Part shown: positions 6,881-27,440 of the stretch, one piece after another
Position numbering within the stretch: position 1 is the stretch's first letter
Layout of the letters: each line of letters opens with the position of its first letter
Assembly: GCA_008080745.1 (NCBI GenBank)
Contig: SHMX01000001.1
Coordinates: 240,001 to 272,000 of the forward strand
Direction: 5' to 3'
DNA: 32,000 bases
Source: Candidatus Thorarchaeota archaeon
GTDB taxonomy: Archaea > Asgardarchaeota > Thorarchaeia > Thorarchaeales > Thorarchaeaceae
Program-made: the position numbers and the translations under genes
Notes under the pieces: model-generated
Database searches by the model: none
Seen by the model: only the letters and a program-made list of their open reading frames with translations
What the model was told of the DNA's origin: nothing

Positions 6881-8049
6881 CGTTCAAAGACAATGAGAGG
6901 CACATACATTTCCTCCTCAGAGACCCCTCCATGATGCCCAAGGATAATCTTACGGTTTCGTCCAGGGAAATGATTAAGGTAAGCATAGTTCTCCTTCATC
7001 ATCAGGACATAATCCCCAATACGTCCTTCAAAAGTGGGACTTGGTGTTTTGTATCCAAACCAACCCTCATCAACTAATTCACTACTCTCTCGCACATAAC
7101 AGGCATGACTCAAGTTATCATCTATGTAATTCAGAAAATTATCAACCCTAGATGGGCGAACATAGCAATAACCCGTCCGAGTGTCCCCACAAACGGGCAT
7201 GGTAAGGGTATCAGTTAGTGCGGGATGGTCTTCGCCGAGAATCAGGGTATCACGAGTGGCATCGACCATACCATGATCTGCAGTGATAATTACCCTAACA
7301 TCACGGGGAAGGTTATGCTCCAAAAAATTACCTATCTTCTCATCAATTAGTTCTAAATGATTCAAAGTCTTTTCATGTTCACATCCGAATTTGTGTGAGA
7401 GATGGTCTAGTTCACCATAGTAAGCATAGACGAATTTTTTCCCTTTTCTAGATAGCTCGAAGGACAGACTATCAATAAGGTCTCCAAGTCCTTCATATCC
7501 CTCTCTATGGCTATGTCCAGACATATAGGAAGAATATTTCGAGTCCACTATATCTTCAGGTTGTACAGTTACAGACTTCACCCGGGGAGCCCTTAAGATA
7601 GAAGAAGACCCAATGAAATCGGATATCTTGATGTCCATCGGATGATTATTAGCCATTGTAACAAAAGGCAGGAACTGTGTAACAACTCCCAGCTCCTTGA
7701 GATACACGTACCAACCTGTAATTCCATGTTGAGCTGGAGGAGTTGCAGTAAAAAGGGAAGATATGACAGGTCCTGTGCTAGGAGGAAAGACGCTAGTTAG
7801 ACGAGCGGTCAGGTTGTCTCTAAGAGGTCCAGAATGGATTTGCCGTCGAAGACAATTGTAACCAAGTCCGTCTATAACCAACAGCAACAGAGAGCTGTGT
7901 GTATCTGTTATCGATTGGTCACCAATAACAAGTTCGGGATAAGAGGATTGATTCCCAATATAACTTGCAATAGCGCTACTGAGATTAACTAAAGATTGTT
8001 TCTCATAGTCAGGTCTGATTGACATTAAGCCTAGATAGATATAGTACAA
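6877..8049 (-). CDS. Alkaline-phosphatase superfamily nucleotide pyrophosphatase/phosphodiesterase
   Basis: VIDGLG, SVFPPST, ELDHLSH, ITADHG and GHHGG metal-binding motifs. Confidence 0.88.
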   Translation of the reverse strand: MYYIYLGLMSIRPDYEKQSLVNLSSAIASYIGNQSSYPELVIGDQSITDTHSSLLLLVIDGLGYNCLRRQIHSGPLRDNLTARLTSVFPPSTGPVISSLFTATPPAQHGITGWYVYLKELGVVTQFLPFVTMANNHPMDIKISDFIGSSSILRAPRVKSVTVQPEDIVDSKYSSYMSGHSHREGYEGLGDLIDSLSFELSRKGKKFVYAYYGELDHLSHKFGCEHEKTLNHLELIDEKIGNFLEHNLPRDVRVIITADHGMVDATRDTLILGEDHPALTDTLTMPVCGDTRTGYCYVRPSRVDNFLNYIDDNLSHACYVRESSELVDEGWFGYKTPSPTFEGRIGDYVLMMKENYAYLNHFPGRNRKIILGHHGGVSEEEMYVPLIVFER

Positions 8050-21367: not shown

Positions 21368-22078
21368 TCATTTAGAACCAATGATGAAGGGGTGCCATTC
21401 TCGTGATGTATCTGTACCGCGCATTCGTTCCATCCGAACACAAAATTTGGAATCTTCACAGTCTGTGTTGAAGCGAAGCACCGCATCAGCAAGATAGGAA
21501 AAAGTTGCATAGGTCTTATCATCATGTACACCTTCTTCAAGGATGAACATAATGCTATGCGAATTTTGTGTTACCCTTCCACTCAACCTTTGCATAGATC
21601 GTGGCATTGTCAAGGGATTAGAATGAAGTATGAGTGTTGAGAGGCTATCTACAACAATTCTTGCACATACCAACCCCTCTAGGGCATCAAAAAGAATGAT
21701 TCCTAACTCACTAATATCATCAATCTTTGATAGAGAATATGATGCACCCGTCATAGGGGCACCCATCCGTTCAGAATAACCATCTATGAAGATAAATTGA
21801 CTACTAAGTTCGTATTCTTCAACAGACCATCCATGTCGACTCATATCATTCCTTATGACCCTAGGAGATACATCAGTTGTAACAAAAATTGCGGGAAACC
21901 CAAGTTTTAGTCCTTCAGCAAGAAACGCCTCTGCATAAGTTGTTTTCCCAGATCCAAGAGGCCCAAGCAGCATGTATGAAACTTGAGTAAGCTGTCCAAA
22001 CTTAACGAGATCGCTAATCATAGGGCTAGCTATCGGGTTACTGCTAGTGGACATTGATTGTGTTGCTTCTTTCTCCAC
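21368..22078 (-). CDS. KaiC-like / RAD55 RecA-superfamily ATPase (degenerate catalytic-Glu site)
   Basis: Walker A GPLGSGKT, Walker B VVDSLS, RMRGT arginine finger; FVTTD in place of the usual xVTxEE. Confidence 0.85.
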   Translation of the reverse strand: MEKEATQSMSTSSNPIASPMISDLVKFGQLTQVSYMLLGPLGSGKTTYAEAFLAEGLKLGFPAIFVTTDVSPRVIRNDMSRHGWSVEEYELSSQFIFIDGYSERMGAPMTGASYSLSKIDDISELGIILFDALEGLVCARIVVDSLSTLILHSNPLTMPRSMQRLSGRVTQNSHSIMFILEEGVHDDKTYATFSYLADAVLRFNTDCEDSKFCVRMERMRGTDTSREWHPFIIGSK

Positions 22079-22099
22079 ATTTGGAACCTCATTATGATA

Positions 22100-22849
22100 T
22101 TATACACCCGGACTTATTTCACCTGGCCATACTCTTATACCTTCGTCAGTGATTCTCATAGAATGAATCCGTGAACTATGTTTCGAACCCCGCAGTTTGA
22201 GAACCTCTACTGAACGTGATCGAGTAGTTTCACTAATTTTTTCGTTATAGAGTACTATCACACCGGAGGCCAGGAATGCCTCGATATCAAAAACCCCAAG
22301 ACCATCATTTTGAGCTGGAATCTCACTTGTAAGAAGGAGAGTACAACCAGAACGAGTAATATTTGCGGTCAACTTGAAAAATTCTTCACGGAGGATATCT
22401 CGGCTTTTGAATTTATACGCCATGATAGATAGGGTGTCAATGACAACACGTTTTGCTTTCATTCGCTTAACGTGATTCAGTATGATTGCTTCCAGACCGG
22501 ATAGATCAAAACTGGGATATTCGCCGATACTAACTGGTGTAGCTTCTTTTGATGGAGAAAGGTCCACTATAGCAAGCATTCCTTCTTCCTCCAATTTTCC
22601 AAAATCCATTCCAAAACGCATCATATTACGCTTAATCTTCTCAGGAGATTCTTCTAGAGTCACCAGAACTCCTGGTTCACTATACTCTATAGCGCCCCGA
22701 TAAAGGAACTGGTTAGCAAGAATGCTTTTCCCAGTGCCAGCCTTCCCAGCAATTAGTATAGTATCACCTAGGGGAAATCCTCCCTCAATCAATTCATCAA
22801 GACCAGGGATACCTGTTTTTACTCGCTCTATTGAATAGTCATCAGACAT
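22100..22849 (-). CDS. KaiC-like RecA-superfamily ATPase
   Basis: KTGIPGLDELIEGG, GKAGTGKS, VTLEE, VVIDT, LLLTSE, KLRGSKH. Confidence 0.93.
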   Translation of the reverse strand: MSDDYSIERVKTGIPGLDELIEGGFPLGDTILIAGKAGTGKSILANQFLYRGAIEYSEPGVLVTLEESPEKIKRNMMRFGMDFGKLEEEGMLAIVDLSPSKEATPVSIGEYPSFDLSGLEAIILNHVKRMKAKRVVIDTLSIMAYKFKSRDILREEFFKLTANITRSGCTLLLTSEIPAQNDGLGVFDIEAFLASGVIVLYNEKISETTRSRSVEVLKLRGSKHSSRIHSMRITDEGIRVWPGEISPGV

Positions 22850-23166
22850 TATTTTGCACCTCGTCGCTGTCTAGCTTTTGCTCCCAGTATCATTTTGAAA
22901 ATCATCCCAGGCTCGGGAATACCTGTGACCGATACGCCGCCGATCATAATGGTCGGAAGAGCAAAGACCCCATATTCCTCTCCTTTTTCAGGATTCTTAC
23001 TTACATTTATTGTTTCTAGACGAAATGTATTCTCTTCGAAATCACCTATCGTTTCAAGCAGAACTTCTTCTGCTCGAGGACAAAATGCACATGTATCGGA
23101 CTTGAAGAAGACAATCTCGATTCTGGTGTCTTCATCATTTGCTTCTATGCTATCGTTGTTCGACAC
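22849..23166 (-). CDS. Thioredoxin-fold protein (CAFC), KaiB-resembling
   Basis: VFFKSDTCAFCP..., INVSKNP..GEEYGVFALPTI. GTG at 23166 follows an AGGAG RBS. The stop codon overlaps the kaiC-like ATG. Confidence 0.82.
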   Translation of the reverse strand: MSNNDSIEANDEDTRIEIVFFKSDTCAFCPRAEEVLLETIGDFEENTFRLETINVSKNPEKGEEYGVFALPTIMIGGVSVTGIPEPGMIFKMILGAKARQRRGAK

Positions 23167-23256: not shown

Positions 23257-23640
23257 TTACCGATATCCCAGTATTCTACGTATTCTGGTTCCTGCCTTCC
23301 CAATAGGTCGTGCATGATATCTCACATTTCGGGGCATTATAGCAGCCAAGATAAGAGGTTGATATCCTTTTGCGGACACTTTTTTGAATACTGCTTTCCC
23401 CATAGAACAGCGCACCGCAATGTCTTTTAAATCGCCTAGATTCAACTCATTTCTCATTCGCTCTACAGAATCAGCTACATAACCAGACATTGCTGCTACA
23501 ACTTCACGATTCGTTGTGGGAGATGCAGCTGATGCCAGCAGAAGCCCATCATCCCGAGCCAATATCGAGGCAATAAAGCCTCCCTCTTTATTCATTTTCT
23601 CTAATACTTCTGCCAAGGCACGGTAGTCTGGTCTTTCCAT
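23257..23640 (-). CDS. Roadblock/LC7 (MglB-like) domain protein
   Basis: ASILARDDGLLLAS...AAM...ERMRNELNLGDLKDIAV..SMGK roadblock pattern. ATG at 23640 preferred. Confidence 0.88.
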   Translation of the reverse strand: MERPDYRALAEVLEKMNKEGGFIASILARDDGLLLASAASPTTNREVVAAMSGYVADSVERMRNELNLGDLKDIAVRCSMGKAVFKKVSAKGYQPLILAAIMPRNVRYHARPIGKAGTRIRRILGYR

Positions 23641-23809
23641 GTTATTACCCCTAGACTTCTGGTCACATTCTCGATTGCGCAATTCCTTATTAAATCATAG
23701 CGTTCCTAATTTGTATAGACAAGAGATAAAAAAGAGAACATGAAAGCATATTTACAGTATTGTTTTAAGTATCAATATCTATCATGGGACAATACGAGGG
23801 AACAGGAAC

Positions 23810-24361
23810 ATGTCAGCCGAATATCGCTTTAAGATTGTGATGCTGGGAGATGGTGCTGTCGGTAAAACAGCACTAACCACACGGTTCACACAAGATCATT
23901 TCGAAACTGACTATAAGCGAACTATAGGCAGTGATTTTGCTGTTAAACGATTAGAGGTGGAGGAAAGGAACGCCAATGTCACCTTGCAGGTTTGGGATCT
24001 TGCGGGACAGAAGAGATTCGAGATTGTTCGGCAGTCCTTCTATCGTGGTGCAAGAGGTGGACTATTGGTCTATGACGTCACCAGAAGACGTACTTTCATG
24101 AATCTTGAAACATGGAAAAAAGAGGCATACGAGAATGTTGGTAAAGAAATTCCTTTGGTCATCGTAGCTAACAAGGTAGACCTTGAAGATAGTAGAGTGG
24201 TTACGACGGAGGAAGGTAAAACATATGCGGAAGGCCAAGGTTTTCTCTATGCAGAGTCAAGTGCGCTAACAGGCAAGAATGTCGAAGAGGCATACAAAAA
24301 ACTATGTATGGCGATGATTGATACCTCAAAGGAACAAAAAGACTCGAAAACAATGATATAG
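23810..24361 (+). CDS. Rab-like small GTPase
   Basis: G1 GDGAVGKT, G2 TIG, G3 WDLAGQ, G4 NKVD, G5 SA; RabF-like IGSDF, FYRGA, LVYDVT. Confidence 0.95.
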   Translation: MSAEYRFKIVMLGDGAVGKTALTTRFTQDHFETDYKRTIGSDFAVKRLEVEERNANVTLQVWDLAGQKRFEIVRQSFYRGARGGLLVYDVTRRRTFMNLETWKKEAYENVGKEIPLVIVANKVDLEDSRVVTTEEGKTYAEGQGFLYAESSALTGKNVEEAYKKLCMAMIDTSKEQKDSKTMI

Positions 24362-24367
24362 ATTCAT

Positions 24368-25495
24368 CTATACTTTCCGAGGTCTTCCCTTCAGTAAACC
24401 AAGAGCATTCTTACATTGCCACATGATATAGAATACCCGTTTGTCACGAAGAGTTCGCTCATCATATCTATCTCGCAATTCGTGAAACTTCTGAACATGT
24501 GCCTCACGTTTTGCTCCTTCGGAATCAGATTCTATCTCCTCAAGAAGGTCTTGGAAAGGTCTGAGAAACGCTTCTAGTTCTTTTACTTCCCACCGAATAA
24601 GTGCACCAGCACCATCTGAGCTGATAAACTGTTTGCTATCAGGATACCATATTAGTTCATCAACCTCACCTATGAGAGATGCTTCGCCTTCTACAGTACC
24701 ACTTTCAAGGCTCCAAACATAGACATCTTTATCATTTGAGCCCGATGCAAGGTATTTTAGGTCAGAGCTGAAAGATACCGCTCGAACCTCATCTGTATGC
24801 CCCAATAGAGTCTTTTCTTCTTCTAGCTTGTCCTTTGTTGCATCCCAGACAATGATGCTCAAATCCGAAGAACCCGATGCTGCCTTTGAGCCATCTCGGG
24901 AGAATCTGATTGTCTTTACTGCAGTACGATGATATTGAATCATCTCGATTGGTTTCTCGGAATTTGGATTCCAGATTCCAATCTTTGCATCAACTCCACC
25001 AGAGATGATACGATTACCAGTAGGATCCCAATCACATGTCACAACATAGAGGTCGTGACCTTTGAGGGTTCTAATCCGGGCTTGTTCATCTACATCCCAA
25101 ATACCAAGAGTAGTATCTCCACTACCGGAAACGAGACGATCTCCATCTGGAGAGAAGGAGAGGGCTAGAATAGGATAGGAATGTCCCTCTAACGTGGCAA
25201 TACAATCACCCGTCCGGATATCCCAGAATTTTATGACCCGTTCAACACTTCCTGATGCCACAATATCTCCACGAGGGGAAAATGCAAGTGAAGTACACAG
25301 TGCATCGTCTTGGAATCGTTGAATTTCCTCTCCCTCCTGAGAATCCAATAGACGAATGGTCTTGTCCTGCAGACCTATAGCAATGAGCCGTCCAACTTGA
25401 TTCATTGTGCATCTTCGAGTAATTTCTGACCCGTGTTCAGCACGTGTTTTCAAAGAGGTGGGTTGGAGAAATAGAGAGAGTTCCTTTGATTCCAT
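24368..25495 (-). CDS. WD40-repeat beta-propeller protein with helical C-terminal extension
   Basis: About seven repeats (GH...SFSPDG..LVSGSGDTTLGIWD; GH..EV.AVSFS...ASGS.DK.V.VW). Confidence 0.95.
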   Translation of the reverse strand: MESKELSLFLQPTSLKTRAEHGSEITRRCTMNQVGRLIAIGLQDKTIRLLDSQEGEEIQRFQDDALCTSLAFSPRGDIVASGSVERVIKFWDIRTGDCIATLEGHSYPILALSFSPDGDRLVSGSGDTTLGIWDVDEQARIRTLKGHDLYVVTCDWDPTGNRIISGGVDAKIGIWNPNSEKPIEMIQYHRTAVKTIRFSRDGSKAASGSSDLSIIVWDATKDKLEEEKTLLGHTDEVRAVSFSSDLKYLASGSNDKDVYVWSLESGTVEGEASLIGEVDELIWYPDSKQFISSDGAGALIRWEVKELEAFLRPFQDLLEEIESDSEGAKREAHVQKFHELRDRYDERTLRDKRVFYIMWQCKNALGLLKGRPRKV

Positions 25496-25614: not shown

Positions 25615-26877
25615 ATGGAAACAGCTAGGGGAGCAAATATTGTGTCTCGTGAACCCGAACGGCTACCATCCGTAACAGATGTTACTCGTACTGTCAAAAA
25701 ACTAGGAAAGAGCTTAGCAAAGATATTCAAAGGCTCATCCGAAAAGTTAGAGAATGATTTGAGGCTACTACAATCAATACAAGCATGTAAAGACGCTTCA
25801 TTGACAGGAAATGAGGATAAACGACTTCTTGCTGTATGTCGTTTATGCGAGTTTGGAGAGAATGCACAAGAATCACTCGAGTTGACCCTATTAGATGATA
25901 GTGAAGTCATTCGGGCAGCTTCAGTAGGAATGCTCATGTTTCTACACAATACAGAGTGTCTAGAAATCATCAAGAAACACAAAGGAGATTCCAGTCCCAA
26001 AGTAAAGGCAGTCGCCAATTATGCCTTCGAGTGGCTTAAGACACAATTAGATGCCGTTCCAGAACCAATGCCAAGCAAAGTAAAGGTTTTGGGAACAAGT
26101 GACCCAAACAAATCAGATGCTGTGGAAGTCCCACTAAAATCTAGTGACGATGTTCCAGTTAAAACCGACTACACTGATATGAATGGTGCAATTGAATTTT
26201 CCGTCATCGTAATAAATGGCATGTCTGAAGAAATTCGCGATATCGAGGTGCAAATTTTAGCATACCCAGGAGATAGTCTGAATCTTACTTCTCGCTCTAA
26301 GGAGATTATTGAACGAATCGGCCCTGGAGGTAGTGAAGAAGTTGTCTTTAAACTTGAAAAGACATCAGAAGCTATCGAGGGGGAATTCATTAGCTCCGTA
26401 ACATTTGTTGACCAAAGTGGCGAAAGAATTGCAGCGAAGACCGGTAACCGTTTGATAAGATCATTTTATGCACAGATAGAACCCCTAGAGAGCAGCTCAG
26501 AAGACTATCACGATCTAAAAAGTAAGATGAAGCATTGGAGCAGGGAACATGTGGTCCCAGAAGACCCTGAAACCCTCTTCGACCAAGTCAAGGCGCTAAT
26601 GAAAAACAAGAATCTATTCATTTTGAATTCAGAGATTTCAAAAAGAGACTCTATGTACATGGGCGTCATAACTGGTATGGGCAAGGGGAAATATGTTGAT
26701 GCTAGAATTGCTGTAACATTAACAGTTCTTGGAAGGTCCAATGAAAATCTATCGAAAATGAGGATTGATGTTATATCTGAAGAGAGTACATTTGTAAATA
26801 CTGCTGCTAGTGAGATATATACTTCAATCCAAGATGTAGTTGGTGGAGATATCCTGCTAGAAACGGATAAACTCTAA
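25615..26877 (+). CDS. HEAT-repeat + linker + adaptin/coatomer appendage-like (Ig sandwich plus platform) protein
   Basis: aa ~65-142 HEAT repeats (LLDDSEVIRAAS, GDSSPKVKAVA); Pro-containing linker; aa ~180-282 beta-sandwich; aa ~284-415 platform-like region starting FYAQIEPLESSSEDYHDLKSKMKHW. Confidence 0.6.
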   Translation: METARGANIVSREPERLPSVTDVTRTVKKLGKSLAKIFKGSSEKLENDLRLLQSIQACKDASLTGNEDKRLLAVCRLCEFGENAQESLELTLLDDSEVIRAASVGMLMFLHNTECLEIIKKHKGDSSPKVKAVANYAFEWLKTQLDAVPEPMPSKVKVLGTSDPNKSDAVEVPLKSSDDVPVKTDYTDMNGAIEFSVIVINGMSEEIRDIEVQILAYPGDSLNLTSRSKEIIERIGPGGSEEVVFKLEKTSEAIEGEFISSVTFVDQSGERIAAKTGNRLIRSFYAQIEPLESSSEDYHDLKSKMKHWSREHVVPEDPETLFDQVKALMKNKNLFILNSEISKRDSMYMGVITGMGKGKYVDARIAVTLTVLGRSNENLSKMRIDVISEESTFVNTAASEIYTSIQDVVGGDILLETDKL

Positions 26878-27440
26878 ACCATTCCACCAGCTTCTAAAAT
26901 TTTGATTGCTAGTTCTAAGAAAGCAGCCTCAACATTTGTACCAGTTTTAGCTGAGGTCTCAAGAAATGAGGCATGAACACCTGAAGCAGTAATTTTATCA
27001 GCAAATGCCTGACCTTCCTCAGTAGTTACAATAGTCTGCCTCATCGCTTCGTTATCTTTGAATTGTTCACGAAGGTCTATTTTATTTCCGATAACAACCA
27101 CAGGTACCTTTCTACCAGTATTGCCCCAACACTCCTCCAACCAGTTCTCAAGGTTCTCAAATGAGGATCTCTCAACCGTGGAATAAACTGCTAGAGCGCC
27201 CTGAGCACCCATATAGAAACTTGATCGCACATTCTTGAAATGTTCCTGTCCAGCAAGGTCCCATATTTGTATACTTACATCATGCCCACCAGCTAGTTTG
27301 AGCTTTTTCACAGCAAAGTCAGCTCCAATTGTGATGTGATATGATGCTCTAAATCCTTCTCCCATGTATGTTCGTCTTAGGCTAGTTTTTCCAACTGAGC
27401 CATCGCCCATAAGAACCACTTTGAATAATGCTGTGACCAT
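26874..27440 (-). CDS. Rab-like small GTPase
   Basis: GDGSVGKT, TIGADF, WDLAGQ, FYMGA, NKID, ETSAK. Confidence 0.95.
   Translation of the reverse strand: MVTALFKVVLMGDGSVGKTSLRRTYMGEGFRASYHITIGADFAVKKLKLAGGHDVSIQIWDLAGQEHFKNVRSSFYMGAQGALAVYSTVERSSFENLENWLEECWGNTGRKVPVVVIGNKIDLREQFKDNEAMRQTIVTTEEGQAFADKITASGVHASFLETSAKTGTNVEAAFLELAIKILEAGGMV

Follow-up and report, generated by a model that had tools for sequence, protein, structure and literature searches.

Proteins of the thioredoxin fold are known to dock on the first ATPase domain (CI) of KaiC, and complexes of CI have been solved with fold-switched KaiB (5JWO) and with the thioredoxin-type part of SasA (SasA-Trx, 6X61). Substitutions at KaiC F122/D123 reduce the binding of both KaiB and SasA (bioRxiv 10.1101/2020.06.17.158394). 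KaiC-like ATPases are abundant in archaea, where a role as signal transduction hubs has been proposed for them (Makarova, Galperin and Koonin 2017), and degenerate ('inactivated') KaiC-like partners have been described in archaea, both as reported in the passages of PMC5847659 that cite this work; almost no inputs to these ATPases are known. Here we describe a locus in a stretch of 32,000 nucleotides (contig SHMX01000001.1, positions 240,001 to 272,000; hereafter the window) of a metagenome-derived Thorarchaeota assembly (genome of 3.16 Mb in 19 contigs, 98% complete). At this locus, genes for a small thioredoxin (Trx) and for two KaiC-like proteins, KaiC-A and KaiC-B, follow one another directly. 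An earlier note, made from the letters of this stretch, had proposed that the small protein resembles KaiB and that the three proteins could form a redox-gated, Kai-like switch. Our analysis favours, with moderate confidence, a related reading as the likeliest one, namely that a redox-active thioredoxin is the dedicated partner of a KaiC-like ATPase pair.

Five genes are co-directional on the minus strand, in the order Roadblock, Trx, KaiC-A, KaiC-B and TPR solenoid, and a gene for a Rab-like GTPase diverges from them. In agreement with the earlier note, the stop codon of Trx and the ATG of KaiC-A share one base (TAATG at 22849), and the stop of KaiC-A is separated from the start of KaiC-B by exactly 21 nucleotides; both statements were confirmed from the sequence. 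Conservation of the Trx-KaiC-KaiC order had been set beforehand as a test, and the order held at every Thorarchaeota locus inspected. Roadblock, Trx, KaiC-A and KaiC-B kept this order at 19 of 19 loci of the family, at five out of five additional loci, with a second family of the same taxonomic order among them whose Trx is 49% identical, and at all Thorarchaeota loci found in a collection of species genomes (65/65). Trx orthologues were present in each of the 24 genomes of the family, and even a distant orthologue retrieved by exhaustive profile search sits in the same operon. The Roadblock gene lies upstream of Trx at all 65 loci, at most of them with a gap of 63-120 nucleotides; the Rab-like GTPase gene adjoins it at most loci, and the TPR gene is found downstream of KaiC-B wherever the contig extends that far. 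At 51 of 58 Thorarchaeota loci the stop codon of Trx overlaps the start of KaiC-A, at 44 of these by ATGA, and both cysteines of Trx are kept in 66 of 66 orthologues. Because of this overlap and of this cysteine pair, the arrangement of Trx and KaiC is more than chance.

It could be argued that the adjacency is inherited gene order without functional coupling. Most loci come from one class of related genomes, so that synteny alone is weak evidence. However, the overlap between Trx and KaiC-A has persisted while the TPR protein encoded nearby drifted to about 45-50% identity (about 45% at the low end), and the linkage recurs in three further Asgard families (labelled f5, f13 and f18) with a rearranged order and different KaiC subfamilies. 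We therefore give very little credence to this explanation.

No true Trx orthologue was found outside this taxonomic order, and the nearest thioredoxins of other Asgard families are again encoded beside KaiC genes, in layouts that differ. In family f13, Trx is followed by a single KaiC and then by a Gtr1/RagA-like GTPase; in f18 a Cys-less Trx, a Trx, a KaiC-A-like gene and a KaiC-B-like gene follow each other; in f5 (eight loci) a fused two-domain KaiC precedes Trx. In a further family, f17, the order is Rab-like GTPase, Cys-less Trx and Trx. Another overlapping Trx-KaiC pair was found on a metagenomic fragment. Thioredoxins of this kind are not generally linked to KaiC: no KaiC gene was present near 8 of 10 representative Trx homologues sampled from the exhaustive profile search, and none of eight Thorarchaeota Trx paralogues has a KaiC neighbour. 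In a tree of the thioredoxins the KaiC-linked proteins form three clades and the backbone is unresolved, so that a single origin is neither shown nor excluded. The linkage would thus be either ancient or repeatedly arisen, and both point to function.

Several features of these relatives deserve mention in their own right. The f5 fusion shows that two-domain forms of KaiC accompany Trx, and its second domain cannot be equated with KaiC-B: that identification was rejected at a profile-comparison probability of only 6.7%. A closed f5 genome carries two identical KaiC-linked Trx copies exactly 3000 nucleotides apart (L135:4077-4325 and 7077-7325, plus strand), which suggests a recent duplication or an assembly repeat. 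The 153-amino-acid gene upstream of the f13 Trx was considered as a Roadblock candidate and rejected, as it has neither similarity nor a Pfam match. The KaiC pair of f18 is preceded by the CxxC thioredoxin, whose start is overlapped by a gene for a 117-amino-acid Cys-less protein of the thioredoxin fold (L130:4274-4627, minus strand). In f17 (L138:4017-5356, minus strand, and L148 with the same layout) the best Pfam match of the Cys-less thioredoxin-fold protein is KaiB, at 21.7 bits and below the cut-off; this protein is preceded by the Rab-like GTPase and followed by a CGPCP thioredoxin. A 121-amino-acid open reading frame of f17 (L138:3637-4002) bears CPC...CPC motifs and looks, by eye only, like a ferredoxin:thioredoxin reductase subunit, and a second Rab-like protein of this family bears PPEIPE repeats.

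A possible contact between Trx and KaiC-A was addressed by modelling the complex, with each protein given as an alignment and the median run taken as the score. The pair scored 0.72 and the best control 0.25; the mark reached by the pair is attained by 58 of 80 solved complexes and by 2 of 110 mismatched pairs. The runs share at least 98% of their contacts, and the predicted local distance difference test score (pLDDT) of the partner is at least 83. On KaiC-A the modelled interface comprises residues 95-97, 101, 103-122, 124-125 and 146-147. On Trx it takes in residues 23-28 around CxxC, residues 55-72 with the helix and the cis-Pro loop, and residues 76-85 in the beta3-beta4 turn; C26 and F28 lie inside it. 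In condensed form, the contact sets KaiC-A 103-122 against Trx 23-28, 62-72 and 76-85. Residues 105-116 of KaiC-A align with residues 116-123 of S. elongatus KaiC CI, the B-loop, and the contacts with the lowest predicted error, F114/D115, align with KaiC F121/D122, the equivalents of the positions at which substitutions reduce KaiB and SasA binding. The model, which passed its controls, places Trx on the equivalent of the CI B-loop, the docking site of KaiB and SasA, as the idea of the earlier note would predict.

This prediction raises the odds that Trx binds KaiC-A, and a number of points weigh against a dedicated partnership. All support for binding is computational. The model may have passed by recall of the solved pose of a thioredoxin fold on the B-loop, and the proteins used as its controls were unrelated ones, with no other thioredoxins among them. 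Conservation of the loop's FDLS core extends to KaiC proteins at large, one of them a paralogue that has no Trx neighbour. A paralogue in the window's own genome is at least as close to KaiC-A as the fused KaiC of f5 is, and the Trx tree does not resolve whether the linkage to KaiC had one or three origins. Finally, KaiB and SasA need no cysteines, so that the CxxC motif may belong to an ordinary reductase that serves another client.

The small protein was next compared with both thioredoxins and KaiB. It carries CAFCP at residues 26-30 and a cis-Pro loop, ALPT, at 69-72; C26, C29, P30 and P71 are invariant in an alignment of 20 orthologues, which follow the pattern CxFCP. It matches Pfam Thioredoxin_3 (PF13192) with 28.6 bits (cut-off 24.8), and all 20 aligned orthologues match this family too. 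The best NCBIfam model is the MJ0307 family TIGR00411 (48.9 bits, under the equivalog cut-off of 92.75), so Trx scores as a member of the MJ0307-type family and not as an equivalog. A profile of the 20 orthologues, compared with the PDB, found the MJ0307 thioredoxin 1FO5 as the best match (6e-17), followed by disulfide oxidoreductases and ordinary thioredoxins; KaiB was absent from the best 60 matches. The likeness to MJ0307-type archaeal thioredoxins, which the earlier note had also recognized, is thereby borne out. The AlphaFold2 model (pLDDT 87.2) has a minimal thioredoxin fold, beta-alpha-beta-alpha-beta-beta-alpha, with an acidic disordered N-terminus and a basic C-terminal tail. The top 50 Foldseek matches of this model are nearly all thioredoxins, thioredoxin-like proteins or disulfide oxidoreductases, with no KaiB among them. 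After realignment, fold-switched KaiB reached Z-scores of 12.5-12.6 (root mean square deviation 1.8-2.0 A) and the best thioredoxins 13.0, so the modelled fold cannot separate KaiB from thioredoxin for this protein.

The resemblance to KaiB noticed by eye is real and weak. Trx of the window matches Pfam KaiB (PF07689; 82 positions, curated cut-off 27 bits) with 20.2 bits (E 4.9e-4), over some 30 residues (44-73) that correspond to model positions 22-55; membership of the KaiB family does not follow, as the cut-off is not reached. In 11 of 32 Thorarchaeota genomes the operon Trx lies just over the cut-off (27.2-28.7 bits), with matches that cover only positions 11-55, that is the N-terminal two thirds. 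All 20 aligned orthologues match KaiB at E-values of 0.01 or below, and a KaiB match of any kind was found for only 1 of 10 small thioredoxins that are unlinked to KaiC. Sub-threshold matches to the KaiB model occur also in M. jannaschii and in five other control genomes, and the resemblance may in part be ordinary cross-matching between families of the thioredoxin fold. The profile comparison which the earlier note had proposed went against KaiB: both Thioredoxin_3 and the MJ0307 family score above it, and Thioredoxin_3 outscored KaiB in all 11 members for which individual scores were read. As judged from its sequence, the small protein is a thioredoxin and not KaiB.

For the two KaiC-like proteins, the motifs reported in the earlier note were all recovered. 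KaiC-A has a Walker A motif GKAGTGKS (35-42), the glutamate pair E66/E67 in VTLEE (E66 being invariant), the Walker B residue D138 and the arginine R220 in KLRG. KaiC-B has Walker A GPLGSGKT (39-46), Walker B D144 and R218/R220 in RMRG; in place of LEE of KaiC-A it has VTTDV (T68, D69, V70), and its catalytic glutamate pair is gone. In 13 aligned Thorarchaeota orthologues T67 and D69 of KaiC-B are invariant and T68 and V70 nearly so. Both proteins thus retain Walker A, Walker B and an Arg finger, and these motifs are conserved in each. Both exceed the PF06745 cut-off of 26.6 bits (scores in Table 1), and KaiC-B also matches DUF7504 with 27.6 bits. Compared with solved KaiC, KaiC-A scores 184 bits with CI and 86 bits with CII, KaiC-B 59.9 and 37.2 bits, respectively. 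Of the proposal that the two proteins mimic CI and CII, the first half stands, KaiC-A scoring as CI-like. The second does not: since KaiC-B matches CI better than CII and the glutamate pair is missing, KaiC-B does not appear to be an equivalent of CII and is best viewed as a degenerate member of the KaiC family. The two are separate single-domain genes, not tandem domains of one chain. The genome's other strong KaiC-like gene (L155:4618-5810, minus strand, on G000:C2) encodes 235 amino acids, 37% identical to KaiC-A; it is preceded by a 156-amino-acid open reading frame which by eye looks like an Lrp/AsnC-type regulator, and there is no thioredoxin nearby.

These data bear on the explanation that the locus is truly homologous to the KaiB/KaiC system and acts as a proto-clock or hourglass, in which Trx would be an early KaiB, KaiC-A the equivalent of CI, and KaiC-B that of CII with a phosphorylation cycle. 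Some observations are in line with it. The order Trx, KaiC-A, KaiC-B parallels kaiB-kaiC as found in a genuine Asgard pair: in one Asgard genome of another family, a kaiB gene lies directly upstream of a two-domain kaiC gene (L157:16-1740, minus strand). The KaiB matches described above, just over the cut-off in 11 of 32 genomes and far more frequent among the linked proteins (20/20) than among unlinked paralogues (1/10), and the tie in fold of fold-switched KaiB with the best thioredoxins also agree with it. In addition, the nearly invariant Ser194-Tyr195 of KaiC-B stands opposite the Ser-Thr phosphorylation sites of CII in what is a weak alignment. However, the KaiB match of the window's own Trx is below the cut-off and spans only part of the model, KaiB matches below threshold turn up in M. 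jannaschii and other genomes as well, thioredoxin models always outscore KaiB, and KaiB has no CxxC. KaiC-B has Asp-Val at the position of the catalytic glutamate pair of CII and is matched better by CI. Finally, against the circadian KaiC models TIGR02655 (cut-off 546.25 bits) and NF006799 (cut-off 408 bits), KaiC-A scores 166.2 and 202.6 bits and KaiC-B 30.3 and 55.5 bits, far under the cut-offs in each case. A clock-type homologue system is consequently very improbable.

A census of cysteines among the orthologues revealed no conserved cysteine in KaiC-A or KaiC-B. For this reason KaiC was rejected as a disulfide substrate of Trx: Trx does not reduce it. Single conserved cysteines are present in other products of the array, namely Cys92 of the Roadblock protein (98%), Cys392 of the TPR protein (92%) and Cys166 of the Rab-like GTPase (95%). 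It is conceivable, then, that Trx is an ordinary disulfide reductase that acts on one of these three cysteines and makes no stable contact with KaiC. Trx is a thioredoxin by every sequence measure, with CxxCP and the cis-Pro loop intact, and the genome has, at another place, a gene for a canonical thioredoxin reductase (G000:C3:315701-316597, 356.9 bits), both of which agree with such a role. Four observations argue against it. The overlap is specifically with KaiC-A and is kept at 51 of 58 loci; in other Asgard families Trx accompanies KaiC even where the genes for Roadblock, TPR and Rab proteins are missing or differ; the model of Trx with KaiC-A passed its controls; and a single cysteine in each protein would be an atypical substrate of thioredoxin unless it forms an intermolecular disulfide. 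An ordinary reductase is therefore unlikely in our view, and dedicated partnership with the KaiC-like pair remains the preferred reading.

Within the preferred reading, a use of Trx in redox sensing is supported by the thioredoxin and reductase genes elsewhere in the genome, by fusions of related domains to sensor proteins and by Cys-less neighbours. Other small thioredoxins are encoded in the genome outside the operon, and no ferredoxin:thioredoxin reductase turned up in it at its completeness of 98%. Asgard genomes encode related Trx domains as fusions with V4R domains or embedded in PAS-histidine-kinase proteins, and in f17 and f18 Cys-less Trx copies adjoin CxxC copies. Redox gating of the contact between Trx and KaiC-A is an inference. 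The fusions are of two types. Three proteins of 480-550 amino acids, from three other Asgard families, combine an N-terminal CxxCP thioredoxin with two C-terminal V4R domains (L149:1929-3587, plus strand; L150:2227-3729 and L152:2047-3495, minus strand) and may constitute a family of redox or small-molecule sensors. Three PAS/HATPase_c proteins of the histidine kinase type carry a thioredoxin-like domain (L151:3258-4985 and L154:2839-4647, minus strand; L153:1628-3610, plus strand); this domain is C-terminal in Thorarchaeota and lies between the PAS and kinase parts in another family.

The positions of the genes in the window are given in Table 1. The 762-amino-acid TPR protein has no Pfam match. 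Its AlphaFold2 model (pLDDT 87.8) consists of about 33 helices, and Foldseek retrieved Ctr9, Ski3, TTC7B, LGN and TPR proteins, all with the low TM-scores that flexible solenoids usually give. The Rab-like GTPase matches the crystallised 'Thorarchaeota Rab' (PDB 7EZB) with 292 bits (E 8.7e-87), and its sequence identifies it as the orthologue of that protein, Thor-Rab. The paper on Thor-Rab (PMC10933270) mentions neither KaiC nor thioredoxin; it states that, in general, regulators are difficult to assign to Asgard GTPases by gene order. Among the genes that flank the array, a paralogue of EF-2-like GTPases is convergent to the TPR gene, and three genes lie beyond Thor-Rab. The sequencing runs listed as containing the stretch are two DNA runs only, from one marine-sediment study that is possibly the source of the assembly, and include no RNA run.

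Table 1. Features of the Trx-KaiC array and of its flanks (positions of the window; bits are profile scores).
Feature	Position	Strand	Remarks
Roadblock/LC7	23257..23682	-	Head of the array; likely start ATG 23640; orthologues begin MERPDY; PF03259 26 bits, cut-off 23
Trx, MJ0307 type, 105 amino acids	22849..23166	-	GTG start 7 nucleotides after GGAG
CAFC active-site codons, Cys26 to Cys29, then Pro30	23080..23091	-	Read from the sequence
KaiC-A, 249 amino acids, predicted single-domain CI-like ATPase of the KaiC family	22100..22849	-	PF06745 237.5 bits
KaiC-A residues 103-122, B-loop-equivalent segment	22484..22543	-	Core of the modelled Trx interface
KaiC-B, 236 amino acids, divergent KaiC-like	21368..22078	-	GTG at 22078 preceded by GAGGT; PF06745 94.7 bits
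TPR-type all-helical solenoid, 762 amino acids	19025..21313	-	Last co-directional gene; fold from AlphaFold2, no Pfam match
Rab-like small GTPase	23810..24361	+	Divergent from the Roadblock gene; Pfam Ras 179 bits
EF-2-like GTPase paralogue, 693 amino acids	16942..19023	+	Same position at most loci of Thorarchaeota and in the second family
WD40 propeller	24368..25495	-	Conserved in many loci
420-amino-acid protein without Pfam match	25615..26877	+	Conserved in many loci
Second Rab-like GTPase	26874..27440	-	Conserved in many loci

Based on these results we propose the following model. Roadblock, Trx, KaiC-A, KaiC-B and the TPR scaffold would form a signalling operon that is conserved across Thorarchaeia, with the gene for Thor-Rab diverging from it. 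A CxxC thioredoxin of the MJ0307 type would have become the dedicated partner of the CI-like KaiC-A, the two proteins being made together by virtue of their overlapping stop and start codons. The active-site face of Trx (CxxC, cis-Pro loop and beta3-beta4 turn) is predicted to dock on the exposed B-loop equivalent of KaiC-A, and the redox state of CxxC, set by the thioredoxin reductase of the cell, may change this binding or its effect on the ATPase cycle. Since KaiC-B has kept nucleotide binding and lost the catalytic glutamate pair, it is probably a regulatory partner, which might act in a mixed or stacked ring. The TPR and Roadblock proteins could then pass the resulting state on to the Rab-like GTPase.

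A bolder version of this model would make the Thorarchaeota Trx a redox-active, ancestral 'proto-KaiB'. MJ0307-type thioredoxins would then have been the first, redox-dependent ligands of the B-loop, KaiB and SasA would have lost their cysteines later, and the module would be a redox-gated KaiC switch that sets the state of the Rab-like GTPase via Roadblock and the TPR scaffold. We consider this version distinctly unlikely; were it true, a prokaryotic clock-type ATPase would be joined to eukaryote-like signalling in membrane traffic.

If the dedicated partnership is correct, the reading of the cellular redox state by a KaiC-type ATPase becomes a concrete and cheap hypothesis for an input. The operon would also provide candidate upstream partners for Thor-Rab, the only crystallised Thorarchaeota Rab, and Trx would bear on how KaiB, a member of the thioredoxin clan, acquired its binding to KaiC. 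The components, all of them small and soluble, are proteins for which E. coli can serve as the expression host.

The system closest to the proposed complex is that of KaiB and SasA on KaiC CI. In both cases a small protein of the thioredoxin fold is encoded next to a KaiC-type ATPase, and in the model it occupies the same site. Unlike KaiB and SasA, the Thorarchaeota Trx has retained CxxC and cis-Pro as invariant features, and its sequence is that of a thioredoxin. Furthermore, no fold switch is indicated, the KaiC partner is a single-domain protein, and KaiA is absent, as is any sign of a clock. The Asgard kaiB-kaiC pair mentioned above likewise places a small gene of the thioredoxin clan directly upstream of KaiC domains. 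Its KaiB (83 amino acids), however, matches the KaiB model over positions 2-76, in effect its full length, with 60.7 bits and has no CxxC, and its KaiC is one two-domain chain of 484 amino acids. The best sequence relative, the MJ0307 thioredoxin (1FO5; TIGR00411), shares CxxCP, the minimal fold and a similar size with Trx. The operon Trx differs from it in its score (48.9 bits against a cut-off of 92.75), in its acidic N-terminal and basic C-terminal extensions, and in the fixed linkage of its gene to kaiC; of 10 relatives sampled, 8 lack a KaiC neighbour.

A thioredoxin can serve as a binding partner without acting as a reductase. E. coli thioredoxin is a structural subunit of T7 DNA polymerase, where its active-site face clamps an exposed loop of the partner without reducing it. 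The fold matches of Trx include 1T7P and 1T8E, which we take to be T7 DNA polymerase with E. coli thioredoxin. The likeness lies in the placement of the face of a redox-active thioredoxin on a loop of its partner, which on the Thorarchaeota side comes from the model only. The polymerase complex is formed by a phage-host pair and involves an unrelated enzyme, whereas the Thorarchaeota pair is encoded in one operon.

The solved archaeal KaiC-like proteins PH0284 (2DR3) and PH0186 (2ZTS) represent the proposed signalling hubs, which, in the cited passages, share with the present locus single-domain proteins, degenerate partners, and varied input and output genes. Neither a thioredoxin input nor a link to Roadblock or Rab proteins is mentioned for these hubs in the literature searched, and no description of a Trx-KaiC-KaiC arrangement was found there; the key 2017 survey of KaiC hubs lies outside that literature. 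The locus also resembles GTPase/Roadblock pairs of the MglA/MglB type and Thor-Rab (7EZB; PMC10933270) in having a Roadblock gene beside the gene of a small GTPase, a likeness in gene content. What sets the Thorarchaeota locus apart from all these systems is a redox-active thioredoxin that is fixed to a split, non-clock KaiC pair in a Roadblock/Rab neighbourhood.

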